From NCBI RefSeq assembly GCF_056746865.1, contig NZ_CM163382.1: a DNA stretch of 64,000 nt; one strand, written 5' to 3'. The notes beneath the pieces are model-generated. The model ran no database searches, was not told the DNA's origin, and saw nothing but the letters and a program-made list of their open reading frames with translations. The position numbers and the translations under genes are program-made. Shown one piece after another: positions 12,001 through 25,740 of the stretch (within the stretch, counting starts at the first letter, position 1; each line of letters starts with the position of its first letter).

Positions 12001-15000
12001 ACTCAACGCCGCCGAACAGCAGCAGCCGTTAACCCTTAACGGCTCGACCAGCGCGGAAGTAGGGCAGACGGTAACCGTCACCTTTGGCGGCAAAACTTAT
12101 ACCGCCACGGTGGCCGCCAATGGCACCTGGGCGCTGAACGTGCCTGCGGCAGATCTGGCCGCGCTCGGGCAGGGCGCACAGACCATTACCGCCAGCGTGA
12201 ACGATCGCGCCGGTAACCCCGGTCAAACCACGCACGCCCTGACCGTCGATACCGTTGCGCCAACGGTCACCATCGCCACGGTGGCGGGTGACGATATTAT
12301 CAACAACGCCGAACAGCTCGCTGGGCAAACCATCAGCGGCACCACCACCGCTGAAGTGGGCCAGACGGTGACCGTCACCTTTAACGGTCAGAGCTGGACT
12401 GCAACGGTCGGCAGCGGCGGAAGCTGGTCGGTGTTTATTCCGGCGCAGCAGTTTGCCGGATTAAGCGACGGCAGCTACACCATTAGCGCGACGGTTAGCG
12501 ATCAGGCCGGAAACCCTGGTAGCGCCAGCCGTGGCGTGACATTGAACGGCGACGTCCCCTCCGTCACCATCAACACCTTTGCGGGCGATGATGTGGTGAA
12601 TGCGGCGGAGCACGGCTCGTCGCTGGTGATCAGCGGCACCACCACCGCCCCAGTCGGGCAGACGCTGACCCTGACCTTAAACGGCAAAACCTACACTACC
12701 ACGGTACAGACCGGCGGTAGCTGGAGCTACACCCTCGGCAGCGCCGATGTCACCGCGCTGGCGGACGGCAATGCCTACGTGATTAACGCCTCGGTGAGCA
12801 ACGCCATTGGCAACACCGGCAGCAGCAATCACACCATTACCGTCGACCTCAGCGCCCCGGCGATGGGCATTAATATCGATTCCCTGCAAGCCGACACTGG
12901 CCTTAGCTCCAGCGACTTTATCACCAGCGTCAGCCCGGTGGTGGTCAACGGCTCGCTCACCGCCGCGCTTGCCAGTAACGAGACGGCGCAAATCAGTATC
13001 GACGGCGGCGTAACCTGGACCACGCTTACCGTTACCGGCACGACCTGGCGCTATAACGACAGCCGCACGCTGACCGATGGTAACTATCTCTATCAGGTAC
13101 GGGTGATTGACGCAGCGGGCAACGTCGGTGCCACTGACAGCCAGAATGTGGTGATCGACACCATCGCGCCAGATCCAGCAGTAAAAACCATCGCCATCAG
13201 CGCGATCACCACCGATACTGGATTGATTACTAACGATTTTGTCACCAGCGACACGACGCTTGCGGTGAGCGGCACGCTGGGGGCGGCGCTTTCTGCCGGT
13301 GAGTTCGCGCAAATCAGCATTGATGGCGGCACCACCTGGCAGAATCTTTCGGTAAGCGGTTTGACCTGGACATATCTTGACGGGCGTACGCTGACTGACG
13401 GCAACTACAACTATCAGGTACGGGTGATCGACACCGCCGGAAATATCGGCGCGACTGCCAGCCAGATAGTCACCGTGGATACCACCGCGCCGCTGGCGAG
13501 CAAAACCATCGCCATTGCGGGCATTAGCGATGACACCGGGTTAAGCAGCAGCGATTTTGTTACTCGCGACACTACGCTTACTGTGCGCGGCACGCTCGGC
13601 GCGGCGCTGGCGGCAGACGAACGGGCGCAAATCAGCCTCGACGGCGGTGTCACCTGGACCACGTTAACCGTTATCGGCACCAGCTGGAGCTATGCCGATG
13701 GTCGCACACTGACCGACGGCACCTGGAACTACACGGTGCGGGTGGTGGATCTGGCGGGGAACGTTGGGCAGACCGCAACGCAAAACGTGGTGGTCGACAC
13801 CACCAGCCCGGAAGCGGCGAAAAGTATCACCATTACCGGTATCAGCGATGACACCGGAGCCAGCAGCAGCGATTTTATTACCAGCGACACCTCGCTTACC
13901 GTGCGCGGCGTATTGGGGGCGGCGCTCGGCGCTAACGAATTCGCGCAAATCAGTACCGACAACGGCGCAACCTGGGTGAACGTGACCGTCGCCGCAGACG
14001 GCCTTAACTGGAGTTACGTTGACGGACGCACGCTCACCAACGGCACCACCACCTGGCAGGTGCGGGTGGTGGATCTGGCGGGCAACGTTGGCGCAACCGG
14101 CAGCCAGTCGGCGCAGATTGACACCGTGAACCCGGCGCAGGTACTCACCATCGCCAGCATCAGCACCGACACGGGGAGTTCGGCAACTGACTTTATCACC
14201 AGCGATACCTCGCTCACGCTGACCGGTTCGCTGGGGGCGGGGCTTGCCAGCGGCGAAGTGGCGCAGATTAGCCTCGACGGCGGCGCGACCTGGATCACGC
14301 TCACCACCAACGGCACGCAGTGGACCTACACTGACAGCCGCACGCTGACCGACGGCAGCTACGTTTACCAGGTGCGGGTGCTGGATCTGGCGGGGAATAC
14401 TGGCCCGGTGGTGTCGAAAACGGTGGTGGTCGATACGATTAACCCCACCGCGACGCCGACCATTGTGTCGTACACTGATGACGTCGGGCAGCGGCAGGGG
14501 ACATTAAGCAGTTCGCAGGCCACCGACGACACTACGCCGTTGCTGAACGGCGTGCTCTCCGGCCCGCTTGCCAGCGGTGAAGTGGTTTACCTCTACCGTA
14601 ACGGCCTGCTGTTAGGCGCGGTAACGATGGTAGGCGCACTGAACTGGACCTACAGCGACAGCGGGCTGGTGAGCGGTGCCTACACCTACAGCGCGCGAGT
14701 GGTGGATCTGGCGGGGAATATCACCTCCTCCAGTGATTTTGTCCTGATGGTCGATACCTCTATTCCGACCACGCTGGCGCAAATTACCAGCCAGACCACG
14801 CGCGATACTACGCCGATTATCAGCGGGGTGATCACCGCCGCGCTTGCCAGCGGGCAGTATGTTGAAGTGGTGATCAACGGCAAAACCTACACCTCTGAAC
14901 CGGGCGGTGCGGTGGTGGTCGATCCGGCGCACAACACCTGGTATGTACAGTTGCCGGATACCGACGCGCTGGCGGCTTCTGCGACCGCCTATAACGTCAC

Positions 15001-17248
15001 CGCGCAGGTAAAAAGCTCGGCGGGCAACGGCAATAACGCCAATATTAGCAACGGCACGGTGACGGTTAACGCGGCGATTGATTACACACCGACCTGGACC
15101 ACCGCCAGCAAAACCACCGCCTGGGGGCTGACCTACGGCCTCGACACGCACGGAATGTGGACGGTGCTGGCAAACCAGCAGGTAATGCAATCGACTGACC
15201 CACTCACCTGGTCGAAGACCGCGCTGACGCTGTATCAGAGCGGCAACAACTACGCCACCAGCTCCATCGCCGATTACGACCGTAACGGCACGGGCGATCT
15301 GTTTATCACCCGTGATGACTACGGTACAGGCTATATCAACGGCTTTACCAATAACGGCGACGGCACCTTTTCCAGCGCTATTCAGGTCACCGTCGGCACC
15401 CTGACGTGGTACGGCTCGATTGTGGCATTTGATAAAGAGGGCGACGGCTATCTCGACTTCTGGATTGGCGACGCGGGCGGGCCGGACTCCAACACCTTCC
15501 TGTGGAACAACGCAGGTACGCTGGTAGGTAACTCCACTACGTCGAACAGCGGCGGTAGCGCCACGGTGGGCGGGGCGGTGACGGGGTATCTTTCGCTCAA
15601 CGAAGGTTCTGGCGTCGATCTGAACAATGACGGCAGGATCGACCTGGTTCAGCACACCTACAACCTGAACAACTATTACACGCTATCTTCGCTCATCAAC
15701 CAGGGGAATGGCACGTTTGTCTGGGGGCAGAACACCACCAATACCTTCCTGAGCGGGGCGGGTAGTGGCGCTATGAGCAGCAGCGTTTCTATGACCTGGG
15801 CCGATTTCGATGGCGACGGCGATATGGACCTCTTCCTGCCTGCCAGCCAGGGAAGAGCTAACTACGGCTCGCTGTTATTCAACACCAACGGCGTGCTGGG
15901 CAGTCCGGTGGCGGTGGGCGCAACGGCAACCACCTACGCCAGCCAGTTTAGCGTGGCGGTGGACTGGAACCACGACGGCCTGATGGATATCGCCCGTATC
16001 GCCCAGACCGGACAATCGTATCTTTACACCAACGTTGGTGGTGCCAGCAACTGGACACAATCGGCCCTCGGCGGCAGCCAGAGCGGTACCACCAGCGGCG
16101 TGGCGGCAATGGACTACGACTGGGACGGCGCGGTGGATGTACTGGTGACCAAACAGTCGGGCAGCGTGTTCCTGATCCGCAACACCAACACGGTGAGCTA
16201 CGGCACTTCGCTACACCTGCGCATCACCGATCCCAACGGCATTAACGTCTATTACGGTAATACCGTAAAACTGTATAACTCGGCGGGGGTGCTGGTCGCC
16301 ACGCAAATCATTAACCCGCAGTCGGGGATGGGGGTTAACGACACCTCGGCGCTGGTCAACTTCTACGGGCTGAATGCCGGAGAAACCTACAACGCGGTGC
16401 TGATCAAATCCACTGGCACCACCGCCAGCAATATCGACCAGACGGTCAACACCAGCTGGGGCGGCTTACAGGCCACCGATGCCACTCACGCTTACGACCT
16501 CAGCGCCGAAGCAGGCACCGCGAGCAACAATGGCAAGTTCGTCGGCACGGGCTATAACGACACCTTCTTTGCCACCGCAGGTACTGACACTTACGACGGC
16601 TCCGGCGGCTGGGTGTACAGCTCCGGCACCGGAACGTGGCTGGCAAACGGCGGCATGGACGTGGTTGATTTCCGCCTCTCGACGGTGGGCGTGACCGCGA
16701 ACTTAAGCAGCACCGCCGCACAGGCCACCGGCTTTAACACCTCGACATTTACCAATATCGAAGGCATTTCCGGCTCGAATTTTAACGACACTCTGACCGG
16801 CAGCAGCGGCGATAACCAACTGGAAGGGCGCGGCGGCAACGACACCCTTAACATCGGAAACGGCGGTCACGATACCTTGCTCTATAAATTGCTCAACGCC
16901 AGTGACGCTACCGGCGGCAACGGCTCAGACGTGGTGAATGGCTTTACGGTAGGGACATGGGAAGGCACCGCCGACACCGATCGCATTGATATCCGCGAGT
17001 TGTTACAGGGCAGCGGCTACACCGGCAACGGCAAAGCCAGCTACGTCAACGGCGTGGCAACGCTGGATGCGCAGGCTGGAAACATCGGTGATTTTGTCAA
17101 AGTCACCCAGAGCGGCAGCGACACCATCGTGCAGATCGACCGCGACGGCACGGGCGGCACTTTTGCGGCAACTAACGTGGTCACGCTGACGGGCGTGCAT
17201 ACCGACCTCGCCACTTTGCTGGCGAATCATCAGTTGATGGTGGTGTAG
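1..17248 (+). CDS. Giant T1SS-secreted repeat adhesin (SiiE/LapA/Bap-like), 5' partial; 5743 codons in window
   Basis: Reading frame is open from window start (frame 2) to the stop at 17248. About 12.8 kb of ~100-aa Ig-like repeats, then a second repeat class, FG-GAP/VCBS-like motifs, RTX-like Gly/Asp-rich repeats and an acidic C-terminus, with a T1SS ABC transporter gene 4 bp downstream. Confidence 0.9.
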   Translation, partial: IATDDVINAAEKGADLTLSGTTTNVEPGQTVTVTFGGKNYTASVASDGSWTATVPAADLASLPEGSASAQASVSNINGNSASAVHNYSIDSSAPTIIINTVASDNIVNASEADAGVTVSGSTTAEAGQIVTVTLNSPTVQTYQATVQADGSWSINIPAADLEALTDGSHTLTATVNDKAGNPASTTHNLAVDLTVPVLTINTIAGDDIINAAEHGQALVISGSSTGGEAGDVVTVTLNSKTYTTTLDASGNWSVGVPAADVTALGSGPQTVTATVTDAAGNSDNETHTVTVNLAAPTIGINTIATDDVINATEKGADLQISGTSNQPAGTTITLTLNGQNYTATTDAAGNWSTTVPASAVGALGEASYTVTANVTDSAGNSNSASHNVQVNTALPGVTLNPVASDDIINAAESGVAQTISGQVTGAAAGDTVTVTLGGKTYTATVQGNLSWSVDVPAADIQAIGNGDLTVNASVTNGVGNTGSGSRDITIDANLPGLRVDTVAGDDVVNSIEHSQALVITGSSSGLAAGAALTVVINTVTYAATVLADGTWSLGVPAADVGNWPAGTVNITVSGATSAGNPVTITHPVTVDLAAVAISINTVSGDDVINAAEKGADLTLSGSTSGVELGQTVTVTFGGKTYTATVAGDGSWTTSVPAADLAALRDGDATVQASVSNINGNTASATHAYSVDATAPTFAINTIATDDILNAAEAGNPLTISGSSTAEAGQTVTVTLNGVTYTGTVQADGSWSVSVPTADLSNLTASQYTVSASVSDKAGNPATATHGLAVDLTVPVLTINTVSGDDIINAAEHGQALVISGSSTGGEAGDVITVTLNSKTYTTTLDASGNWSVGVPLSDVTALGSGPQTITATITDAAGNSDDASRTVTVNLTAPTIGINTIADDDVINATEKGADLQITGTSNQPAGTTITVTLNGQNYTAITDASGNWSATVPASAVSALGEANYTVTANVTDSAGNSNSASHNVLVNSALPAVTINAVAADDIINAAEAGNAQTISGQVTGAAAGDTVTVTLGGNTYTATVQANLSWSVSVPAADIQAIGNGNLTVNASVTNGVGNTGSGSRDITIDANLPGLRVDTVAGDDVINSIEHNQALVITGSSTGLTAGTALTVEINNVTYGATVLADGTWSLGIPAADVSNWPAGTVDITVSGTNSAGTTSTITHPVTVDLAAVAITINTLSGDDVINAVEKGETLVVSGSTSGVEAGQTVTVTFGGKNYTTTVEANGSWTVNVPPADLAALPDGAGNVQASVSNINGNSAQADRAYSVDATAPLITINTIASDDTLNVSEAGAGITISGTTTAQAGQTLTVTLNNNTYQTTILADGTWSVNVPATDLSGLTASSYTVTATVSDKASNPASADHALAVDVTAPDLTINTVAGDDIINAIEHGQALVVSGTSTGAAAGDVVTVSLNGKNYTTTLDASGNWSVGIPAADVTALATGSQTITASLSDRAGNSDSATHNVTVDLSGPTLTISTVSGDDIINNAEKTQDLTISGGSSGLATGTTVTVMLNGLAYSATTDSSGNWSVTVPASAVGALGEAVYSISASATDSAGNSGSTTHTVNVESLLPGVIINTVAGDDIINAAEIVVAQTISGQVTGTAVAGNTVIVTIGGNQYNATVQSDLSWSVSVPANVLQALGNGELTISASVTNSANNTSTATHDIVIDANLPGLRVDTVAGDDVINSIEHTQALVITGSSSGLAAGAALTVVINSVTYGATVLADGSWSVGVPAADVTNWPAGTVNIAVSGTNTAGTTTSISHPVTVDLAAVAITINTLSTDDVINAAEKGSDLQLSGTTSDVEAGQTITVIFGGKSYTTTVAAGGTWGLTIPAADLATLPDGAANVQASVSNVAGNSAQATHAYSVDATAPSVTINTIATDDILNADEAGSALTISGTSTAEAGQTVTVTLNGVNYSGNVQADGSWSVSVPTGDLANLTASPYTVSAAVSDKAGNPASATHNLTVDLVAPVVTINTVAGDDIINATEHGQAQIISGSATGATTGNTVSVTIGTTTYTTVLDANGNWSIGVPASVISALAQGNVTITATVTDSAGNSGTASHTVSVALGAPILSINTIAVDDIINATEKGADLAISGSSNQPAGTQITVTLNGQNYTTTADASGNWSVTVPASRVSTLGEATYTVTAAATDADGNSGSASHNVQVNTALPGVTINVVASDDIINAAEAGAGQSISGQVTGAAAGDTVTVTLGEATYTATVQANLSWSVDVPASALQALGNGELTISASVTNSVGNTGNGTREITIDANLPGLRIDTVAGDDVVNIIEHGQALVITGSSSDLAAGSNVTLTINGQTYVAAVLADGSWSVGVPAVDVSAWPAGTVTITASGNTTAGNPVSVTHPVTVDLTAVAVSINAITADDVINAAEKGAALTLSGSTSGVEAGQTVTVTFGGKTYTASVAANGSWSTTVPATDMAALRDGDASAQANVSNVNGNSATTTHAYSVDATAPTVTINTIAGDDILNAAEAGAALTITGSSTAEAGQTVTVTLNGANYTGTVQTDGSWSISVPPADLSALTASNYTVSAAVSDKVGNPASVNHNLTVDTSVPVVTINTVAGDDVINATEHAQAQIISGSATGAATGSAVTVTIGTNTFTTVLDASGNWSVGVPASVVSALANGTVTINASVTDAAGNSGSATHLVTVNTGLPSITFNAISGDNVLNADEKGQPLTISGSSTGLATGAQVTVTLNGHNYSATTDAAGNWTLTVPVSDLAALGQANYIVSASATSAAGNIASSQANLLVDSGLPGVTINTVAGDDIINAAEAGADQTISGVVTRAAAGDTVTVTLGGNTYTTTVQGNLSWSISVPAADLQALGNGDLTINASVTNANGNTGSGTRDITIDANLPGLRVDTVAGDDIVNSIEHGQALVITGGSSGLNAGVPLTITINGTAYSATVQADGSWSVGIPATNVSAWPAGALTVDVAGQSSAGNPVSVSHPFTVDLTAVAISINTVASDDVINAAEKGTDLTLSGSTSGIESGQTVTVTFGGKTYTASVAANGSWSVNVPAADLATLPDGAANVQASVSSASGNSASATHAYSVDASAPTLTINTIASDDILNATEAGSPLTISGTSTAETGQTVTVTLNGATYSGNVQADGSWSVSVPPSALGALTASNYTVSATVNDKAGNPGSTSHNLAVDTTAPVLTINTVAGDDIINDAEHAQALVISGTSSGGEAGDVVSVVLNGKTYTSTLDASGNWSVGVPAADVTALGSGAQTITASVSDRAGNSDDASRTVTVSLSAPVISINTIAGDDVINATEKGSDLTLSGTSDQPAGTAITVTLNGQNYSATTDASGNWSVTVPASAVSALGEATYSVTASVTNAQGNSSTASHNVQVNTALPGVTINPVATDDIINAAEAGSAQTISGQVTGAAAGSTVTVELGGKTYTATVQADLSWSVSVPAADWQALGNGELTVNASVTNAVGNTGSGTRDITIDASLPGLRVDTVAGDDVVNIIEHSQAQVITGSSSGFAVGTALNVVINNQTYAATVLANGSWSVGVPATDVSNWPAGTLNITVSGANSAGTQTSITHPLTVDLTTVAVSINSITSDDVINAAEKGAALTLSGSTSGVEAGQTVTITFGGKTYTTTVAANGSWSTTVPAADMAALRDGDASAQVRVTNVNGNSATATHEYSVDSAAPTVTINTIASDNIINASEAAAGVTVSGTSTAQTGQTLTVTLNGTNYQTTVQADGSWSLTLPASDLTALANNGYTLTATVSDLAGNPGSASKGVTVDTTAPVISFNTVAGDDVINRVEHTQAQIISGTATGAVAGDRLVVTIAGQQYVTSTDASGNWSVGVPASVISGLADGTVTISATITDSAGNSSTQTHNVQVNTAAVSLSVSTISGDNIINAAEAGSALTLSGTGTNFAAGTVVTVLLNGKGYSATIQNNGSWSVNVPAADVAALADGTSYTVSASAQDSAGNSATASRSVAVDLTAPVISINTVSTDDRLNAAEQQQPLTLNGSTSAEVGQTVTVTFGGKTYTATVAANGTWALNVPAADLAALGQGAQTITASVNDRAGNPGQTTHALTVDTVAPTVTIATVAGDDIINNAEQLAGQTISGTTTAEVGQTVTVTFNGQSWTATVGSGGSWSVFIPAQQFAGLSDGSYTISATVSDQAGNPGSASRGVTLNGDVPSVTINTFAGDDVVNAAEHGSSLVISGTTTAPVGQTLTLTLNGKTYTTTVQTGGSWSYTLGSADVTALADGNAYVINASVSNAIGNTGSSNHTITVDLSAPAMGINIDSLQADTGLSSSDFITSVSPVVVNGSLTAALASNETAQISIDGGVTWTTLTVTGTTWRYNDSRTLTDGNYLYQVRVIDAAGNVGATDSQNVVIDTIAPDPAVKTIAISAITTDTGLITNDFVTSDTTLAVSGTLGAALSAGEFAQISIDGGTTWQNLSVSGLTWTYLDGRTLTDGNYNYQVRVIDTAGNIGATASQIVTVDTTAPLASKTIAIAGISDDTGLSSSDFVTRDTTLTVRGTLGAALAADERAQISLDGGVTWTTLTVIGTSWSYADGRTLTDGTWNYTVRVVDLAGNVGQTATQNVVVDTTSPEAAKSITITGISDDTGASSSDFITSDTSLTVRGVLGAALGANEFAQISTDNGATWVNVTVAADGLNWSYVDGRTLTNGTTTWQVRVVDLAGNVGATGSQSAQIDTVNPAQVLTIASISTDTGSSATDFITSDTSLTLTGSLGAGLASGEVAQISLDGGATWITLTTNGTQWTYTDSRTLTDGSYVYQVRVLDLAGNTGPVVSKTVVVDTINPTATPTIVSYTDDVGQRQGTLSSSQATDDTTPLLNGVLSGPLASGEVVYLYRNGLLLGAVTMVGALNWTYSDSGLVSGAYTYSARVVDLAGNITSSSDFVLMVDTSIPTTLAQITSQTTRDTTPIISGVITAALASGQYVEVVINGKTYTSEPGGAVVVDPAHNTWYVQLPDTDALAASATAYNVTAQVKSSAGNGNNANISNGTVTVNAAIDYTPTWTTASKTTAWGLTYGLDTHGMWTVLANQQVMQSTDPLTWSKTALTLYQSGNNYATSSIADYDRNGTGDLFITRDDYGTGYINGFTNNGDGTFSSAIQVTVGTLTWYGSIVAFDKEGDGYLDFWIGDAGGPDSNTFLWNNAGTLVGNSTTSNSGGSATVGGAVTGYLSLNEGSGVDLNNDGRIDLVQHTYNLNNYYTLSSLINQGNGTFVWGQNTTNTFLSGAGSGAMSSSVSMTWADFDGDGDMDLFLPASQGRANYGSLLFNTNGVLGSPVAVGATATTYASQFSVAVDWNHDGLMDIARIAQTGQSYLYTNVGGASNWTQSALGGSQSGTTSGVAAMDYDWDGAVDVLVTKQSGSVFLIRNTNTVSYGTSLHLRITDPNGINVYYGNTVKLYNSAGVLVATQIINPQSGMGVNDTSALVNFYGLNAGETYNAVLIKSTGTTASNIDQTVNTSWGGLQATDATHAYDLSAEAGTASNNGKFVGTGYNDTFFATAGTDTYDGSGGWVYSSGTGTWLANGGMDVVDFRLSTVGVTANLSSTAAQATGFNTSTFTNIEGISGSNFNDTLTGSSGDNQLEGRGGNDTLNIGNGGHDTLLYKLLNASDATGGNGSDVVNGFTVGTWEGTADTDRIDIRELLQGSGYTGNGKASYVNGVATLDAQAGNIGDFVKVTQSGSDTIVQIDRDGTGGTFAATNVVTLTGVHTDLATLLANHQLMVV
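2..12850 (+). repeat. Tandem array of ~300-bp (~100-aa) Ig-like domain repeats organised as a ~1.8-kb higher-order unit of six domain subtypes, at least 7 copies
   Basis: Recurring motifs (INAAEKGADLTLSG, TVTFGGKTYTA, INAAEHGQALVISG, INATEKGADLQISG, AQTISGQVTGAAAGDTVTVTLGG, VNSIEHSQALVITG) return in the same order. Antisense artefact ORFs recur at 1621, 3415, 5215, 7009, 8806 and 10600, giving a period of about 1797 bp. Confidence 0.85.
12851..14450 (+). repeat. Second class of ~105-aa repeats in the adhesin (about six copies)
   Basis: Repeated pattern DTGLSSSDFITSDTSLTVRGTLGAALAA.E.AQIS.DGG.TW..LTV.G..W.Y.DGRTLTDG.Y.YQVRV.D.AGN; two more degenerate copies follow to about 15050. Confidence 0.6.
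15270..16150 (+). repeat. FG-GAP/VCBS-like calcium-binding repeats (probable beta-propeller) in the adhesin
   Basis: Spaced Dx[DN]xDGxxD motifs: DYDRNGTGDLF, FDKEGDGYLDF, DLNNDGRIDLV, DFDGDGDMDLF, DWNHDGLMDIA, DYDWDGAVDVLV. Confidence 0.55.
16540..16890 (+). repeat. RTX-like glycine/aspartate-rich nonapeptide repeats preceding the C-terminal secretion signal
   Basis: GTGYNDTFFATAGTDTYDGSGG and GSNFNDTLTGSSGDNQLEGRGGNDTLNIGNGGHDTLLY resemble GGxGxDxUx repeats; the protein ends ...TLLANHQLMVV. Confidence 0.6.
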
Positions 17249-17251
17249 AGA

Positions 17252-19414
17252 ATGAAAAAAAATGCCCAGTCCGTGGAAGCCTGGCTGGAGGCGATGATCG
17301 CCGTGGCGCGTTATTACCGCCTTGATTTTTCTCAGGAGAATGTGCGCGCGACCGTCAACTGGGAGCGCGACAGTAAGCGGGAGGAGTTACTCACCGACAT
17401 GGCGCGGCAGTTGGGGATGGGGCTTCGGCTGGTGGAGTTCTCCACCGACTCGCTCAACCCGTGGCGGCTGCCGTTGATCGCCGTTTTTGATAATCAACAA
17501 ATTGGCGTGATCACCCGCCGTGACAATCACGACAATATCAGCATTCAGTTTAGCGGTGACGAAGGGCTGGAAACTACGCTTAACGTCGCGGATGTTGAGG
17601 ATAAAATCGTTGAACTGGCGCTACTGCGCCCGCTCAGCGCCATCCCTGACGCGCGGGTAGATGACTATATTCGCCCGTATCAGGCGAACTGGTTCTGGAG
17701 CCTTTCGCTAAAAGACTGGCGGCGCTACGGCGATATTATGCTGGCCTCGCTGGTGGCGAACGTGCTGGCGCTGGCGGCGATGATTTTCTCGATGCAGGTT
17801 TACGACCGGGTGGTTCCGGCGCAATCGTACCCGACGCTATGGGTGCTGTTCGCCGGGGTGATGATGGCGATCCTGTTTGAGTTCTGTATGCGCATGGTGC
17901 GCACACATCTTTCGGATGTGATCGGCAAGCGGGCGGATCTGCGCATTTCGGATCGCGTTTTTGGTCACGCATTACGGCTGAAAAATAACGTGCGATCGAA
18001 ATCCACCGGATCGTTTATCTCGCAGATCCGCGAGCTGGAATCGGTGCGGGAGCTGATTACTTCCACCACCATCGGCGCGGTGGCGGATCTGCCGTTCTTC
18101 CTGCTGTTTGTCTTTATTTTATGGATGATCGGCGGCTGGCTGGTGCTGGTGGTTTTGCTGGCGCTGCCGTTATTGGTGATCCCCGGCCTGCTGGTGCAAC
18201 GCCCGCTGGCGCGGCTGGCGAACGAAGGGATGCGCGAGTCGGCGGTGCGTAACGCTACGCTGGTGGAAGCCGTGCAGTCGATTGAAGATATTAAGCTGCT
18301 GCGCGCCGAACAGCGTTTTCAGAATCAGTGGAACCACACCAACGACGTGGCCTCGTCCATCAGCATGAAGCAACGTTTTCTCACCGGGCTACTGCTCACC
18401 TGGACCCAGGAAGTGCAGTCCATCGTTTACGTCGTGGTGCTGTTGGTGGGCTGCTTTATGGTAATGAACGGTGACATGACCACCGGCGCGCTGGTCGGGA
18501 CGACGATCCTGGCTTCGCGCACCATCGCGCCGCTGTCGCAGATATCCGGCGTGCTCTCGCGCTGGCAGCAGGCGAAAGTGGCGCGCAACGGACTTGATGA
18601 ACTGATGAAGCGCCCGGTGGATCAGCCGGAACACGGCAAACTGGTGCATAAAGCGGTGCTACACGGCAATTATCAGTTCAGCAACGCTATCTTTTATTAC
18701 GATGAAGAAGAGAAAATTGCCGATGTGGCGATTGGCAAACTCAACATTCAGGCCGGAGAGAAAATCGCCATTCTTGGGCGCAACGGCGCGGGTAAATCAA
18801 CGCTACTGCAAATGCTCGCCGGAATGCGTATCGCCCAGCAGGGGCAGGTGCTGCTGGATAACATCAGCATCGGTCAGCTTGATCCGGCGGATCTGCGCCG
18901 CGACATGGGGCTGCTGAGCCAGACCGGGAGACTCTTTTTCGGTTCGCTGCGGGAAAACCTGACGATGGGGATGCCGGAAGCCAGCGATGAAGATATCGAA
19001 CGCGCGTTAACCCTCAGCGGGGCGCTGCCGTTTGTGCAGAAGCAGAAAAACGGCCTCAACTACATGATTCAGGAAGGGGGATTTGGCCTCTCTGGTGGTC
19101 AGCGGCAAACGCTGCTGCTGGCGCGGCTGCTCATCTCTCAACCCAATATCGTGCTGCTCGATGAACCCAGCGCCTCGCTGGACGAAATGGCGGAAGCGCA
19201 TTTAATCGAACAACTGAAACAGTGGATTGGCCATCGCACGCTGATTATCGCCACTCACCGCACGGCGATGCTGCAACTGGTGGACCGCATTATCGTGATG
19301 GATCAGGGGCGGATTGTGATGGATGGCGCGAAAGAGGCCATTTTGCGTGAACAGAGCGAACCCACGGCGCGACGGGTGGTGTTGCAGGAGAAGAATAAGG
19401 GGTCTGCCGCATGA
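17252..19414 (+). CDS. T1SS ABC transporter (ATPase/permease, HlyB/LapB-like) with N-terminal C39-like domain
   Basis: 720 aa. Walker A GRNGAGKST, ABC signature LSGGQRQ, Walker B IVLLDEP and H-loop ATHR are present, with hydrophobic segments in the middle. Starts 4 bp after the adhesin stop and overlaps the next gene by 4 bp. Confidence 0.9.
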   Translation: MKKNAQSVEAWLEAMIAVARYYRLDFSQENVRATVNWERDSKREELLTDMARQLGMGLRLVEFSTDSLNPWRLPLIAVFDNQQIGVITRRDNHDNISIQFSGDEGLETTLNVADVEDKIVELALLRPLSAIPDARVDDYIRPYQANWFWSLSLKDWRRYGDIMLASLVANVLALAAMIFSMQVYDRVVPAQSYPTLWVLFAGVMMAILFEFCMRMVRTHLSDVIGKRADLRISDRVFGHALRLKNNVRSKSTGSFISQIRELESVRELITSTTIGAVADLPFFLLFVFILWMIGGWLVLVVLLALPLLVIPGLLVQRPLARLANEGMRESAVRNATLVEAVQSIEDIKLLRAEQRFQNQWNHTNDVASSISMKQRFLTGLLLTWTQEVQSIVYVVVLLVGCFMVMNGDMTTGALVGTTILASRTIAPLSQISGVLSRWQQAKVARNGLDELMKRPVDQPEHGKLVHKAVLHGNYQFSNAIFYYDEEEKIADVAIGKLNIQAGEKIAILGRNGAGKSTLLQMLAGMRIAQQGQVLLDNISIGQLDPADLRRDMGLLSQTGRLFFGSLRENLTMGMPEASDEDIERALTLSGALPFVQKQKNGLNYMIQEGGFGLSGGQRQTLLLARLLISQPNIVLLDEPSASLDEMAEAHLIEQLKQWIGHRTLIIATHRTAMLQLVDRIIVMDQGRIVMDGAKEAILREQSEPTARRVVLQEKNKGSAA

Positions 19415-20586
19415 ACGGACAACTGCAATACAACCGTGGCCTGACTGAACCCCGCTTGCCGCGTTCGGCGCTGGCGGTACGCGTTACCGCTGTGATGCTG
19501 CTCTGTTTTCTCGGCTGGGCGTGGTACTTCCAGCTTGATGAAGTCACCACCGGCAGCGGCACGGTAGAACCCTCCGGGCGCGAACAGGTGGTGCAGTCGC
19601 TGGAAGGCGGAATTCTGTATCATCTCGACGTCAAGGTTGGCGATATTGTTGAACAGGGCCAGCCACTGGCGCAGCTTAACCGCACCAAAACGGAATCCGA
19701 CGTCCAGGAAGCAATGTCGCGGCTGTACGCGGCGCTGGCAACCTCGGCGCGGCTGCGGGCGGAAGTGAGTAATAAACCGCTGGTCTTCCCTGACGAACTG
19801 AATAAATTCCCCGAACTTATCGAGTCGGAAACGGCGTTGTACAACACTCGCCGCGATGGGCTGAACAAAGCCACCACCGGGCTGACGCAGGGGATTAGCC
19901 TGGTCAACCGCGAACTGGCGATGACCCAGCCGCTGGTAAAACAGGGGGCGGCGAGCAGCGTTGAAGTGCTGCGCCTGCAACGCCAGGCCAATGAACTGGA
20001 AAACAAACTCAGCGACGTGCGCACGCAATACTACGTTCAGGCGCGCGAAGAGTTAGCAAAAGCCAATGCGGAAGTGGAAACCCAGCGTTCGGTGATCCGT
20101 GGACGGGAAGACTCCCTCACCCGGCTCAACTTTACCGCGCCGGTACGTGGCATTGTTCAGGACATTGACGTCACCACGGTTGGCGGCGTTATTGCCCCCG
20201 GTGGTAAACTGATGACCATCGTGCCGCTGGATGAGCAACTGCTGATCGAGGCAAAAATCTCCCCGCGCGATGTGGCGTTTATCCATCCGGGGCAAAAATC
20301 GCTGGTGAAAATAACCGCCTACGATTACTCCATCTACGGCGGCCTGCCGGGAGAAGTGGCGGTGATATCACCAGACACCGTGCAGGATGAAGTACGGCGC
20401 GATGTTTATTACTATCGGGTGTACATTCGCACTTTCAGCAACCATCTGGAAAATAAAAGCAAACAGCAGTTTCCGATATTCCCCGGTATGGTGGCGACGG
20501 TCGATATCCGCACCGGCAAAAAAAGCGTGCTGGATTATCTGTTGAAACCCTTTAACAAAGCACAGGAGGCGTTGCGCGAACGATGA
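19411..20586 (+). CDS. T1SS periplasmic adaptor (HlyD-family membrane fusion protein)
   Basis: 391 aa. N-terminal transmembrane helix ([20 protein letters not shown]), long coiled-coil-prone central region, C-terminal beta domain; start overlaps the ABC transporter stop. Confidence 0.85.
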
Positions 20587-20990
20587 ACATTAGCGATGTA
20601 GCAAAAATTACCGGCCTGACCAGCAAAGCCATTCGCTTCTATGAAGAGAAGGGGCTGGTGACGCCGCCGATGCGCAGCGAAAATGGTTATCGAACCTACA
20701 CGCAGCAGCATCTCAACGAACTGACCTTACTGCGCCAGGCGCGCCAGGTGGGCTTTAACCTGGAAGAGAGCGGCGAACTGGTGAATCTGTTTAACGATCC
20801 GCAGCGTCACAGTGCCGACGTCAAACGTCGCACCCTGGAGAAAGTGGCGGAGATCGAGCGACATATCGAAGAACTGCAATCCATGCGCAACCAGCTGTTG
20901 GCGCTGGCGAATGCCTGCCCTGGCGATGACAGCGCCGACTGCCCGATTATCGAAAATCTCTCCGGCTGCTGTCATCATCGGGCGGGGTGA
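20583..20990 (+). CDS. cueR: Copper-responsive MerR-family regulator CueR
   Basis: 135 aa, [25 protein letters not shown]...[24 protein letters not shown], recognised as E. coli CueR with its C-terminal Cys metal-binding motif. Confidence 0.95.
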
Positions 20991-20993
20991 AAA

Positions 20994-21197
20994 TCAGTTA
21001 ATCCCCGTTTGCACCGAAAGAATATGCTGCAAACTTTCTACCATAATGCGCCCCGACTGAAATAAGCCTTCCTGGATTTCGTTGTTAACATTCACAGCGT
21101 GAACCAGGGAGGCTAATAACACCACTTGCAAGAAGGCAAAAATAAACGCACCGATAATCATAATATGCGTCAGGGGGATTTTCCTTTGCTCTTTCAT
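20994..21197 (-). CDS. Small single-pass membrane protein (67 aa), last gene of the autotransporter operon
   Basis: Hydrophobic helix IMIIGAFIFAFLQVVLLASLV. Its ATG overlaps the stop of the upstream lipoprotein gene (ATGA), suggesting translational coupling. Confidence 0.45.
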   Translation of the reverse strand: MKEQRKIPLTHIMIIGAFIFAFLQVVLLASLVHAVNVNNEIQEGLFQSGRIMVESLQHILSVQTGIN

Positions 21198-21616
21198 TTT
21201 AAATAACCCACAAACTGACCTTCCTTCATTAAGGCGACTTTTCCCGTGTGGTGATAAACAATGACGTTATAAAGACCTGACTGATAAACAGTGGCATCTT
21301 TATTGTCTTCATCAATTGCACATAATGAATCATTGAGATAAGCAAAGTTCTTACTGCTCATTCTAAAGGTCATGCCAAATCCTTTATAAATAGATTTTTT
21401 AGCGGCCTGGGCATGTTGTGCGGCTTCTGCATTTTTAAATGCCTGCGCTTCTGATGCACTTAAAATAGCCGCCTGACGCTGTTGTTCTGCGAGATAACAG
21501 GTGTCATGGCTGACGCCCTGCGCCTGGCAATCTGCGATGCGGGAAGTGGGTGAACTACAGCCAGCCAGTAATATAACCGCCAGCAGGGAAAACGATTTAA
21601 TGGAGCTATTCATCAT
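21194..21616 (-). CDS. Lipoprotein (140 aa) encoded immediately downstream of the trimeric autotransporter
   Basis: Signal peptide with lipobox LLAGC|SS; same strand as and 53 bp downstream of the autotransporter gene. Confidence 0.7.
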   Translation of the reverse strand: MMNSSIKSFSLLAVILLAGCSSPTSRIADCQAQGVSHDTCYLAEQQRQAAILSASEAQAFKNAEAAQHAQAAKKSIYKGFGMTFRMSSKNFAYLNDSLCAIDEDNKDATVYQSGLYNVIVYHHTGKVALMKEGQFVGYLK

Positions 21617-21669: not shown

Positions 21670-23454
21670 TTAGAACGAATATCCCACGCCGACACCCGCA
21701 CCGAAATCAGATTGTGTATCCGCAGAAATACCTGCTTTAAGTACCGTATGCGTTCCGGCATTAAAAGATGTTCCTACAGACACCGCAGATTCACCGTTGT
21801 ACGTTCCCGCTCCCGCTGACACCATCATCAAGTCACCGGTTTTCACCTGTGGTTGTGAGGCGATAGCGATGGCAGATGCAGTTCCCGCATTGGCTTCTTT
21901 ACGATTGTCCTCAACTTCGTTTTTCAGAGAATCGAAATGGTTATTGAGCGTAGTAATCTGCTGGCTATTATCCGCTACTCGTTTTTGCGTGTTGCTTAAC
22001 TGCTGATGCGTTTGGGTTACGTCTTGTGTCAGGCTGTCAATTTGTTCATGCGTTTGTGTTGAGTCTTGCGCCAGACGCTGAATTTGTTCCCCGTACTGCA
22101 CACTATCGATATGCTGTTGCGTTGCCTGGTTAGTCGCCAGAGTATCTATTTTTTGTTTTTGTTCTGCTGCAGTACGCGCATTCGCATCATTTTGTGCTCT
22201 CAGTCCGGCGTTAACCATCTCTTGATAATGTGCGTTGGTCTGGGCATCGCCAAGTGCGGAAACCGTTTTTTGCGTCGCGTCGATTTGTTTCTGCTGATCG
22301 TCCATTTGTTGCTGCTGGGTGTCAGCTTGTGCCTGTTGCGCATTGGCAGCGGCTGTCTGTCTGGCGTCAATCATGCTCTGATATCGGGCGGCAGTCTGCA
22401 CATCCCCGGTGGCGGCAACGGTTTTCCGGGTTTCGTCGAGTTGTTGCTGCTGGTCAGCAATATCGCTGCGGTTCTGTTCGATATTATTTTTGTTTTCTGT
22501 CACAGCACCGGAAAGTTTGACGCCGTTCATCAGAGCGGTGTTGGCGTTAGCGTTGGCATGGTCAGCCGTTGACTGGGCATGTGCGACATCGCCTTTTATG
22601 TTGGTGACGTCTGACTGCACTGCGGAGACATCATTACGGGTGTCGGCGATGGCGGCTTTATTGGCATCAATATCCGTCTGCGCCACCATAATGGCGTGCT
22701 GCGCGTCATCAGCTTTCATTGAAGCCCAGTTGGCGACATGTTGTGCGTCCTGAATGGCGGTATCCTGCCCGTTGTCGCGGACGATCTGTTTTTGCTCGTT
22801 TGATGCCAACAGTTTCTGCTGGTCGGCAATATCGCTGCGGTTCTGTTCGATGTTGTTTTTGTTTTCTGTCACAGCACCGGAAAGTTTGACGCCGTTCATC
22901 AGAGCGGTGTTGGCGTTAGCGTTGGCATGGTCAGCCGTTGACTGGGCATGTGCGACATCGCCTTTTATGTTGGTGACGTCTGACTGCACTGCGGAGACAT
23001 CATTACGGGTGTCGGTGATGGCGGCTTTGTTGGCATCAATATCCGTCTGCGCCACCGTGATGGCGTGCTGCGCGTCATCAGCTTTCAGTGAAGCCCAGTT
23101 GGCGGCATGTTGTGCGTCCTGAATGGCGGTATCCTGCCCGTTGTCGCGGTCGGTCTGCGCTTGATTGGTTATCGGGTTCAGCGTATTGGCGGGCTGTACG
23201 GGAGAGGCAGCTGTATTTTCCTGAGGTGTCGTTGTCCGGTAATCATGCGCAATCAGATAATTTTGTGCGGCTGCACTATTCCCTGTCCTTTCTAAAAATC
23301 GACCAATTTTCTGATCAATTTCCGATTGCGACATTCCTGGCTGGATTGCCGTTAATTCTGTCGTTGCCGCCTCAACAGTATCACCCGCAAACGCAGATGG
23401 ACTTACCGCGGTAGCAACAACGACAGCCAGTAAAGACAGCTTTACAGTTTTCAT
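21670..23454 (-). CDS. Trimeric autotransporter adhesin-like protein with YadA-like C-terminal anchor (~594 aa)
   Basis: Sec signal MKTVKLSLLAVVVATAVSPSAFA; long Q/A/D-rich coiled-coil-like stalk with internal repeats; C-terminus GTASAIAIASQPQ...GAGVGVGYSF matches the YadA-type anchor pattern. ATG chosen at 23454; the ORF track extends to a TTG at 23472. Confidence 0.8.
   Translation of the reverse strand: MKTVKLSLLAVVVATAVSPSAFAGDTVEAATTELTAIQPGMSQSEIDQKIGRFLERTGNSAAAQNYLIAHDYRTTTPQENTAASPVQPANTLNPITNQAQTDRDNGQDTAIQDAQHAANWASLKADDAQHAITVAQTDIDANKAAITDTRNDVSAVQSDVTNIKGDVAHAQSTADHANANANTALMNGVKLSGAVTENKNNIEQNRSDIADQQKLLASNEQKQIVRDNGQDTAIQDAQHVANWASMKADDAQHAIMVAQTDIDANKAAIADTRNDVSAVQSDVTNIKGDVAHAQSTADHANANANTALMNGVKLSGAVTENKNNIEQNRSDIADQQQQLDETRKTVAATGDVQTAARYQSMIDARQTAAANAQQAQADTQQQQMDDQQKQIDATQKTVSALGDAQTNAHYQEMVNAGLRAQNDANARTAAEQKQKIDTLATNQATQQHIDSVQYGEQIQRLAQDSTQTHEQIDSLTQDVTQTHQQLSNTQKRVADNSQQITTLNNHFDSLKNEVEDNRKEANAGTASAIAIASQPQVKTGDLMMVSAGAGTYNGESAVSVGTSFNAGTHTVLKAGISADTQSDFGAGVGVGYSF
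22440..23160. repeat. Near-identical ~369-bp tandem duplication (two copies) inside the autotransporter stalk
   Basis: Sequence from ctgctggtcagcaatatcgctgcggttctgttcg at 22447 recurs at 22816 with few mismatches; encodes the duplicated ~123-aa block DNGQDTAIQDAQH...NIEQNRSDIADQQ. Confidence 0.85.
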
Positions 23455-23472
23455 GCATTTTTTCTCTTTCAA

Positions 23473-23820
23473 AGTAAGTCACATATTTGTTTCTATAAGC
23501 AACGTAAAACGTTGTTATAAGAATTAATCTGCGTTGCAATTTGATCGAAATCTACGCCGCCATTTGTGTGATGTAAAGCGCATTTTTGTCTGGTGTAAGC
23601 GTAAACATCACCAATAAGAAACAAAAAATGTTTCTTATATAAATAAAATCGAAAATCATTTTGTGCTCTTTCAATGTAAAAAAGAGTAAAGACTTGTTTT
23701 GATAAGCGAAATAAATTCTGTTTCTGGACTAAACGTGAAGCGGTTCCTGATGTGTGCTAAAATGCGTTTCTTTGATAAATCTCAATTTTTAAGAGGTTTA
23801 CGCCAGGCAGGAAAATTTAA
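23473..23820. promoter_or_regulatory. AT-rich divergent control region between the autotransporter operon and a small ORF
   Basis: About 350 bp of markedly AT-rich non-coding DNA; perfect palindrome aagaaaca-aaaaa-tgtttctt at 23616-23636. Confidence 0.4.
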
Positions 23821-24183
23821 ATGAATGAATTTGAGAAGATTTTTAATGAAATGAATCTGGACCGGGCATTGCTACCGATCCTTTTTCGTTCGAACCGGTC
23901 AACAGTGTGGAAATATTTAAGTGGCGATAGTACGGCTCCTGCCTCAGCTATGTCACTGATTATGCTGTTGCAGTTAATCCAGAAACGAAACCCCGATCTG
24001 TTAGCCGAATGGTTAACGCTTTCTGATTTCACCATTCCGCCAGAAGTTTACCTGGACCAGCCTGATTACTGGAAAGGGTGGGTGTATACGCAACACAAGG
24101 TCAATAAAAACGTCCTGGAATATCTAAAAAAACATTATCCGGATGAAGACCAAAAAAACATGAATAAAGGTAGTGACGAGTAA
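23821..24183 (+). CDS. Hypothetical small protein (120 aa), possible helix-turn-helix regulator
   Basis: AT-rich ORF divergent from the autotransporter; segment SNRSTVWKYLSGDSTAPASAMSLIMLL loosely resembles an XRE-type HTH. No confident family assignment. Confidence 0.4.
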   Translation: MNEFEKIFNEMNLDRALLPILFRSNRSTVWKYLSGDSTAPASAMSLIMLLQLIQKRNPDLLAEWLTLSDFTIPPEVYLDQPDYWKGWVYTQHKVNKNVLEYLKKHYPDEDQKNMNKGSDE

Positions 24184-24194
24184 TTTGCCAATGC

Positions 24195-24365
<171 letters not shown>

Positions 24366-24367
24366 CA

Positions 24368-24826
24368 TCAGGCGATGACCGCACGGATGATCAGCGTTAT
24401 CCCTTCTATCGCAATGACTTCAACATGCGTACCTGCACCGAGATCCTCGCTGGCGCTGACAGGCCATGAACTGTCACCGACGCGCATATGACCTCGCCCG
24501 TTGACCAGCGGAGATTCCAGCACAAAACGTCGGCCAATAAGCTGCTGCCCGCGCTGGTTTAAATGACTGTCGCTGTGCTTTTGTTCGCGCACCCGCCGCG
24601 ACAACCATTTCCACCACAGCCAGGCGGCGAGCAGCGTCAGGACGGCAAACATCACCCCTTGCCACTCCCAACCCAGCGGCACCAGCCAGACCACCAGACC
24701 GGTAATCACCGCTGCCACGCCGCTCCACAACAAATAACCATTTCCGCCCAGCATCTCGGCTGCCAGCAGCAACCCGCCGAGACTGAGCCAGAAAATATGT
24801 GGATGAACGACCATTAACTCCATCAT
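24368..24826 (-). CDS. ybbJ: NfeD-family inner membrane protein YbbJ
   Basis: 152 aa, hydrophobic N-terminal half; overlaps the upstream stomatin-like gene, consistent with the qmcA-ybbJ pair. Confidence 0.85.
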
Positions 24827-25740
24827 GGCTGAGTCCGTTTGTTGGCGCTGTCTTTCACCAGCTCGGCAATCCCGGCAATCGACCCCATCAGGCTGCTGGC
24901 CTCTAATGGCATCATCACTACTTTGCTGTTACTGGAGGAACCGATCTGCTGTAACGCTTCGGTGTATTTCTGCGCTACGAAGTAGTTCACCGCCTGAATA
25001 TCACCGGAGGCGATGGCTTCAGACACCATTTTGGTGGCGCGGGCTTCTGCTTCAGCGGAACGTTCACGAGCTTCAGCCTGTAAAAACGCCGACTGACGTT
25101 CGCCTTCCGCTTTCAGGATTTGCGACTGTTTTTCACCTTCGGCTTTGAGGATTTCCGCCTGACGGATCCCTTCCGCTTCGAGGATGTAAGCGCGTTTGGT
25201 ACGTTCCGCTTTCATCTGCGCGTTCATTGAAGAGATAAGCTCTGCCGGTGGGCGCACGTCGCGAATTTCAATACGGGTGACTTTAATCCCCCACGGGTTG
25301 GTGGCTTCATCGACAATACGCAGCAGGCGTGAGTTGATGCTGTCGCGCTGAGAGAGCATTTCGTCAAGTTCCATTGAACCCAACACGGTACGGATGTTAG
25401 TCATGGTCAGGTTGATGATCGCCAGCTCCAGATTGCTGACTTCATAGGCAGCGCGTGGCGCGTCAATCACCTGAATAAAGCACACGGCGTCGATGGTAAC
25501 GTTGGCGTTATCTTTCGAGATAACTTCCTGGGAAGGGATATCGAGCACTTGCTCCATCATATTGATCTTGCGACCAATGCGATCCATAAACGGCACCACC
25601 AGACTGAGCCCCGGCTGTAACGTTTTGGTATAGCGACCAAAACGTTCTACTGTCCACTGATAGCCCTGCGGCACGATTTTGACGCCCGCGCCGACAATGA
25701 CCAGCGCGACAAAAATGAGAATCGGGATAAAGATAAGCAT
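24823..25740 (-). CDS. qmcA: SPFH/band-7 stomatin-like protein QmcA
   Basis: 305 aa, [37 protein letters not shown]..., recognised as E. coli QmcA (YbbK). Confidence 0.9.

Follow-up and report, generated by a model that had tools for sequence, protein, structure and literature searches.

Length-variable surface proteins and the OI-29 autotransporter

Variation in the number of repeats in surface proteins is a well-known route to altering reach, shielding and antigenicity, and Saa of Shiga-toxigenic Escherichia coli carries variable repeats of 37 amino acids (aa). Here we analyse a 64,000-nt stretch of an E. coli chromosome (contig NZ_CM163382.1 of assembly GCF_056746865.1; hereafter the window, in which all positions are given unless another record is named) and in it a tandem repeat of period 369 in the gene of a predicted trimeric autotransporter of 594 aa plus stop (21670..23454, minus strand, from the list of open reading frames (ORFs)). 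This is the two-unit allele of a gene called z0639 or gmrA in O157:H7 and Ec042-0536 in enteroaggregative E. coli (EAEC) 042; the stretch from cueR to ybbJ that holds it corresponds to O-island 29 (OI-29) of O157:H7 (PMC5826968). The repeat is probably a 123-residue coiled-coil module, variable in copy number, in the stalk of this small autotransporter.

Similar behaviour has been described for periscope proteins, in which near-identical DNA repeats encode a rod-like stalk and their number varies via homologous recombination, altering the projection of the tip (PMC8201768; PMC9704523). The class consists of monomeric chains, and trimeric autotransporters are explicitly left out of it as multimeric coiled coils (review PMC9704523). 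Periscope repeats are longer than 50 residues, as are the 123-aa units described here, which share 97-100% DNA identity and are present in 1-5 copies within one allele family. However, these units are coiled-coil segments of a predicted trimer and not monomeric, independently folding domains. In its way of working the window protein resembles the periscope proteins, although it falls outside the class.

The mechanism is ordinary and well precedented, as repeat-number variation is already documented in trimeric autotransporters. In Cha of the Haemophilus cryptic genospecies the number of tandem peptide repeats varies between strains, and this variation has been linked to how far the distal domain is exposed (Sheets and St Geme 2011, cited in PMC9704523). 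Cha resembles the window protein in being a trimeric autotransporter with strain-variable passenger repeats, and differs in that its repeats are short and have no sequence relationship to the 123-aa coiled-coil rod found here. The repetitive neck/stalk of BadA from Bartonella henselae differs between isolates, and long reads were needed to resolve it (Thibau et al. 2022, PMC8859334). Unlike the window protein, BadA is very large, and known domain types make up its head and its neck/stalk modules.

Two orthologous loci have been described. EAEC 042 has two trimeric autotransporters, one of them Ec042-0536, for which its genome paper found no hint of a function in the literature (Chaudhuri et al. 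2010, PMC2808357); this strain carries a three-unit allele of the window's family. The locus of O157:H7 has the same order as the window (cueR, a 67-aa ORF, a lipoprotein gene, the autotransporter gene, z0640 and ybbJ) and its protein belongs to the same family, with 62% identity over the signal peptide and tip and 78% over the common stalk and anchor. Unlike the window protein, the O157 allele has 338 aa without any 123-aa unit and has been published as a transcription factor. Yang et al. (2018, PMC5826968) named it GmrA and presented it as an activator of fliA that binds DNA, and a 2024 review still lists it as a transcription factor.

An in-frame tandem repeat of two near-identical cores

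A single array was identified with Tandem Repeats Finder, at 22443-23157 (period 369, 1.9 copies, 96% matches, 0% indels, score 1346), and a second repeat search aligns 22443-22742 with 22812-23111 at 97% identity and a spacing of 369. Chance could not plausibly give a direct repeat of 715 bp at 96% identity. The period is a multiple of 3, and a single open minus-strand frame (21670-23472) holds the whole array. An earlier sequence-only reading of this stretch had proposed an in-frame duplication in the autotransporter stalk, and this is borne out: the repeat encodes 123 aa of the coiled-coil stalk in a protein that ends in a YadA-type anchor. The alignment that it had suggested as a check, 22447-22815 against 22816-23184, is gapless with a mean identity of 96%. 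The identity is unevenly spread, with columns 1-342 of the unit alignment about 97% identical and the final 27 columns far more diverged.

In the phase of those coordinates (22816-23184 and 22447-22815) each unit consists of a 12-aa leader followed by a 111-aa core. The leaders, at 23149-23184 and 22780-22815, match at just 19 of 36 bases. Thus, the near-perfect part is 2 x 333 bp, at 97% identity, and not the two near-identical units of about 369 bp that had been described. The first core covers residues 103-213 (RDNGQD...SDIADQQ; 22816..23148, minus strand like all features of the gene), as delimited by repeat finding, alignment, heptad pattern and structural model, and the second, from repeat finding and alignment, covers residues 226-336 (22447..22779). 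The leader of unit 2, KLLASNEQKQIV (22780..22815), serves as the linker between the two cores; the junction that it forms is limited to alleles with at least two units. The coding bases shared by the two units number 330; nine of them differ, in five synonymous and four non-synonymous codons, and the longest perfect run between the units is 160 bp. Two plus-strand ORFs, 22409-22753 (114 aa) and 22754-23122 (122 aa), are antisense mirrors of the units and were set aside as most likely by-products of the repeat.

Alleles with zero to five units

The one-, two- and three-copy alleles that had been predicted were all found in complete E. coli genomes, together with alleles of zero, four and five units. 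Unit counts were taken from direct translation of fetched loci, from record spans and from a junction-specific query. Proteins without a unit (338 aa) are found in O157:H7 PA20 and UTI89, with one unit (471 aa) in GPEC403-625 (locus L002) and DS566, with two (594 aa) in the window, CFSAN061770 and 33F4, with three (717 aa) in EAEC 042, with four (840 aa) in AST215 and VCSW7, and with five (963 aa) in 18KM2445. A 14-aa deletion shortens the three-unit protein of THO-008 to 703 aa.

The gene family is present at the OI-29 locus in 1414 of 5426 complete E. coli genomes, about a quarter. The N-terminal region of the window's unit-bearing allele family is found in 350 of the 5426, and the junction specific to two or more units in 181, which leaves about 169 genomes with one unit. 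At least three units are spanned by the first 35 records ranked on a three-unit query. In about 1060 further genomes the locus is occupied by more distant alleles, of which the examined ones have zero units. These counts are of records, some strains being present under two accessions, and the counts for three or more units are approximate. Copy number was not read from BLAST coverage, which is misleading since joined pieces reuse the same subject DNA: one-copy alleles reach 97% coverage of a two-copy query, and every genome reaches at least 80% on the three-unit query. A word-indexed protein search with one unit gave 15 matches, mostly fragments, and is unsuited to a census of length, though it brought to light both a divergent allele family (below) and the break-up of the repeat in short-read assemblies. 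Among 100,044 species-representative genomes the unit was found just in Escherichia sp. E1V33.

Coiled-coil structure of the unit

Residues 111-216, set out in rows of seven, have an unbroken a/d core in which Asn occupies several d positions. Residues conserved without change in all unit families sit on a/d positions, the four amino-acid differences between the window units are all at surface (non a/d) positions, and natural indels inside units are of 14 aa, exactly two heptads. The unit consists of about 16 uninterrupted heptads followed by the 12-residue linker, and the heptad register shifts by 4 at the linker, between L216 and I234. As 123 is 17 x 7 + 4, the linker absorbs the leftover four-residue shift. 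Every unit-to-unit junction is therefore equivalent, so that whole units could be added or removed with the rest of the fibre undisturbed. In the AlphaFold2 model each unit is a single helix (103-220 and 229-349), the two being separated by a break at 221-228, and long helices extend over residues 103-529, with about 430 helical residues in all. Each unit would add about 18 nm of stalk (123 residues x ~0.15 nm). Sequence searches of the PDB, with the whole protein and with a unit profile, returned just generic trimeric coiled coils outside the anchor (E >= 0.01), and the unit has no detectable relative among solved structures in these searches.

Layout of the protein

The listed ORF begins at a TTG (23472), but the true start is likely the ATG at 23454 (MKTVKL...), since in O157 a TGA stop lies directly 5' of the equivalent ATG, as mapped from a published primer. 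The first residues form a predicted Sec signal peptide, MKTVKLSLLAVVVATAVSPSAFA (23386..23454, from the translation), recognised by eye from its basic N-terminus, 12-residue hydrophobic core and A-F-A motif, with cleavage expected before GD. The tip region follows (residues 24-102, 23149..23385), with three short helices predicted over residues 26-69 by the AlphaFold2 monomer and then a proline-rich low-confidence linker that ends in the leader of unit 1, TLNPITNQAQTD (23149-23184). Residues 1-72 have 54-78% identity among three allele families.

Beyond the 123-aa units there is a tandem pair of about 52 aa (residues 338-385 and 390-437, 22144..22443; BLASTP 46% over 48 aa, E = 9e-11), which appears older, and a 42-bp tandem pair encoding 14 aa, or two heptads (22001..22084; 78% matches with Tandem Repeats Finder, 74% in the second search). 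With these two pairs in the same stalk, the stalk has evidently grown through repeated duplication. An allele from O145 (L013) has a 20-aa deletion inside the ~52-aa pair.

The last 60 residues (21673..21852) are a YadA-type beta-barrel anchor (Pfam PF03895, i-Evalue 1.4e-11, model positions 1-60 of 60), which is the sole significant Pfam domain of the window protein and matches by sequence the solved anchors of Hia (2gr7, 3emo), AtaA (9vnj) and YadA (2lme). In a type Vc anchor each chain gives four strands to a 12-stranded trimeric barrel. With this anchor, a predicted Sec signal peptide and a coiled-coil stalk that runs into the anchor, the window protein has the features of type Vc secretion and is predicted to be a trimeric autotransporter, for which surface display and trimerisation are likewise predictions and adhesive activity is hypothetical. 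Pfam gave no match to YadA head, Hep_Hag, HIM or neck domains in the window protein at E-values up to 10. The adhesive head that the sequence-only reading had placed on the stalk is accordingly replaced by a conserved helical tip of ~50 aa with a proline-rich linker. Head domains are common in trimeric autotransporter adhesins, yet are not required for membership.

Age of the array and probable exchange between units

The duplication had been called recent. Some expansions elsewhere are indeed very recent, as in the four-copy allele of AST215, where units 1-3 differ at 0-1 bases, but the layout itself looks old, being also present in a divergent family. This family (E. coli TB06052 and Escherichia sp. 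E1V33) has two units and a related linker, and its two units share just 72% protein and 74% DNA identity with each other. Window unit 2 differs from the lone unit of GPEC403-625 at 2 of 330 positions and from its own unit 1 at 9 of 330. From these two observations, we conclude that the array is probably old and homogenised, and that near-identity in the window's family would reflect concerted evolution and not a fresh duplication. Across strains, units tend to cluster by position, first with first and last with last. The informative sites form blocks common to different unit positions and strains, which is a signature of gene conversion or unequal crossover. O145 strains have a single unit that is a hybrid of the divergent family's two, as unequal crossover would give. 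The 36-bp linkers of the two families are mutual best matches (22 of 36), and each matches its own N-terminal leader at 15-19 positions. The flanks of alleles that differ in copy number have no more than about 1% differences upstream and up to 4% downstream, and those of THO-008 are identical to those of EAEC 042. Two frameshift-ridden assemblies (L010 and L011) were replaced in the analysis by clean E. coli records (L012 and L013).

These observations fit a process in which whole units would be gained or lost when sister chromosomes undergo homologous recombination out of register, by unequal crossover or gene conversion, or when replication slips, and in which the same exchange would keep the units alike. 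Direct repeats of 333 bp at 97-100% identity should be ample substrate for RecA-mediated misaligned exchange. Extra units would push the conserved N-terminal tip farther out from the outer membrane and so alter its position with respect to capsule, lipopolysaccharide and whatever else lies on the surface. As the same two-copy allele is fixed in many genomes at >=99% identity, the change would be slow variation at the level of lineages and not a phase switch.

Alternative explanations

The two copies could in principle be an artefact of assembly, through a mis-joined or collapsed repeat, and the sequence-only reading had flagged the site as prone to assembly error. Short-read assemblies do break there: short-read E. 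coli assemblies contain 'partial' proteins of pure unit sequence on contigs of 232-507 bp (P0001-P0003, P0009), one of them a circularly permuted 123-aa unit on a contig of 369 bp, and such unit-only contigs indicate that these assemblies collapse or break at the locus. The two-copy state of the window is nevertheless genuine. A 2-kb (2001-bp) region around it is matched at >=99% by 141 complete E. coli genomes, and among the matches listed 36 of 36 are uninterrupted, full-length two-copy pieces from unrelated laboratories and hosts. The nine fixed differences also let the two copies be told apart, and the chance of an artefact is negligible. A single recent and selectively neutral duplication in the window lineage, without ongoing dynamics, would account for cores that are 97% identical without indels and for a two-copy allele fixed and unchanged in many genomes at >=99% identity. 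We find it improbable, as it leaves unexplained why unit 2 is nearer to another strain's lone unit than to unit 1, why units group by position across strains, why alleles with one to five units have the same linker, and why a divergent family with units 74% identical has the same layout.

Two further alternatives concern the function of the protein. The unit may be a ligand-binding module, like the immunoglobulin-binding stalks of Eib proteins or the repeats of M protein, with copy number tuning avidity or antigenicity over reach. This is compatible with the length explanation, and both the surface position of the four inter-unit amino-acid differences and the small tip, without a known adhesive fold, would suit it; it is nevertheless unlikely, because neither Eib nor any solved autotransporter stalk is detectably similar to the unit, beyond the generic coiled coils noted above. 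EibD fragments are in the PDB, and no Eib chain was among the PDB sequence matches to the whole protein or the unit profile. Alternatively, the protein may be a cytoplasmic activator as published for GmrA, in which case the repeat would lengthen a DNA-binding coiled-coil protein. The O157 orthologue is reported to bind the fliA promoter by gel shift and by chromatin immunoprecipitation with quantitative PCR, and deletion of the gene to abolish motility in eight strains, with complementation restoring it in O157 (Yang et al. 2018, PMC5826968). However, the published deletion primers flank exactly the autotransporter coding sequence (CDS) of O157:H7 PA20 (L008, 1602-2618), the cloning primers start at ATGAAAACTGTAAAC and end at the codons for GVGYSF, and the CDS so delimited encodes a signal peptide of Sec type together with a YadA anchor (Pfam 2.6e-11). 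This anchor is the sole significant domain of the 338-aa O157 protein, in which Pfam gave no significant DNA-binding domain; the sole 'DNA-binding' match, a coiled-coil one named TMF_DNA_bd, has E = 0.16, and NCBIfam gives just Rad50/SMC coiled-coil matches far under the cut-offs. The O157 GmrA sequence thus predicts an exported trimer anchored in the outer membrane and not a transcription factor, an indirect origin of the motility phenotype deserves consideration, and we regard a cytoplasmic activator as very unlikely.

Several points weigh against a stalk module of variable copy number as the explanation. Surface display, trimerisation and fibre length are predictions from the sequence, a phenotype tied to unit number is hypothetical, and the copy-number differences could be selectively neutral. 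The AlphaFold2 model is a single-sequence monomer with a mean predicted local distance difference test (pLDDT) score of 60, so the break at the linker and the 18-nm step are estimates, and the orthology of the linkers between families is suggestive only, with 22 of 36 bases shared where 12-15 is the background. The sole published functional study of an orthologue reports a cytoplasmic role (PMC5826968), and deletion of the whole of OI-29 in O157 left adherence to HeLa and Caco-2 cells unchanged, in a strain with the zero-unit allele (PMC5826968).

Annotation at the repeat

The RefSeq product name is 'YadA-like family protein'. In every multi-copy allele examined, the CDS of the RefSeq/PGAP annotation has 339-349 aa and starts from an internal Met of the last unit (22719 in the window), which leaves the signal peptide and N-terminal half bare (22720-23454 in the window, or for example 10121-11221 in L001). 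In one single-unit allele the RefSeq start is 40 residues late. With these misplaced starts and the breaks in short-read assemblies, surveys of pan-genomes or virulence genes will miscount or mis-size the gene.

Neighbouring genes

The gene order in the window is the giant adhesin siiEA, a type I secretion ATP-binding cassette (ABC) transporter, an HlyD-family adaptor, cueR, the 67-aa ORF, the 140-aa lipoprotein, the autotransporter, the 120-aa protein and ybbJ, and the 2-kb region is identical in many E. coli chromosomes. The gene of the 140-aa lipoprotein (21194..21616, minus strand), a homologue of z0638, has the lipobox LLAGC and is where the z0638 primers map; it follows the autotransporter gene on the same strand after a gap of 53 bp, and its O157 homologue is annotated 'lipoprotein' in RefSeq. 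The small hydrophobic ORF of 67 aa (20994..21197, minus strand) overlaps it by 4 bp. Both are kept in all allele families and may be accessory factors of the autotransporter, by analogy with SadB, the lipoprotein of Salmonella SadA. The divergent gene of the 120-aa protein, a homologue of z0640, lies at 23821..24183 on the plus strand (ORF list and primer mapping). No family cut-off of NCBIfam was reached by the four island proteins, the 120-aa protein included. The intergenic region 23473-23820 is AT-rich, with 32-33% G+C against ~53% in the autotransporter gene, and a promoter and terminator scan of the locus gave matches no commoner than in shuffled sequence.

On the other side, the 3' 17 kb of siiEA ('BapA-related adhesin') occupies 17-17248 as a single open frame within the window, an ORF of at least 5743 aa, and is followed by the ABC transporter (17252-19414), the HlyD adaptor (19411-20586) and cueR (20583-20990). 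The type I secretion substrate gene is frameshifted in strains 042 and O157 (PMC2808357). Palindromic elements resembling repetitive extragenic palindromic (REP) sequences lie at 24220-24400, between the 120-aa gene and ybbJ, and in a related locus (L010, 3632-3863) REP-like elements form a 100-bp tandem array. A weak 33-bp tandem repeat is present inside qmcA (25089-25185; 2.9 copies, 73% matches).

Significance

It is possible, although we put it forward tentatively and think it doubtful as a whole, that gmrA encodes a headless trimeric autotransporter of variable length, with 0-5 modules of ~18 nm, that the motility defect is an indirect effect on the envelope or surface, that stalk length sets the clearance of the tip from O-antigen and capsule, and that E. 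coli has in this protein a trimeric analogue of periscope proteins, built from coiled coils. The value of the locus lies partly in the pitfalls that it exposes in annotation and assembly, and in the discrepancy with the sole functional paper on an orthologue, that on GmrA. What is new is a clean natural series of 0-5 units in an almost unstudied E. coli trimeric autotransporter, which is ready-made material on fibre length versus surface exposure.

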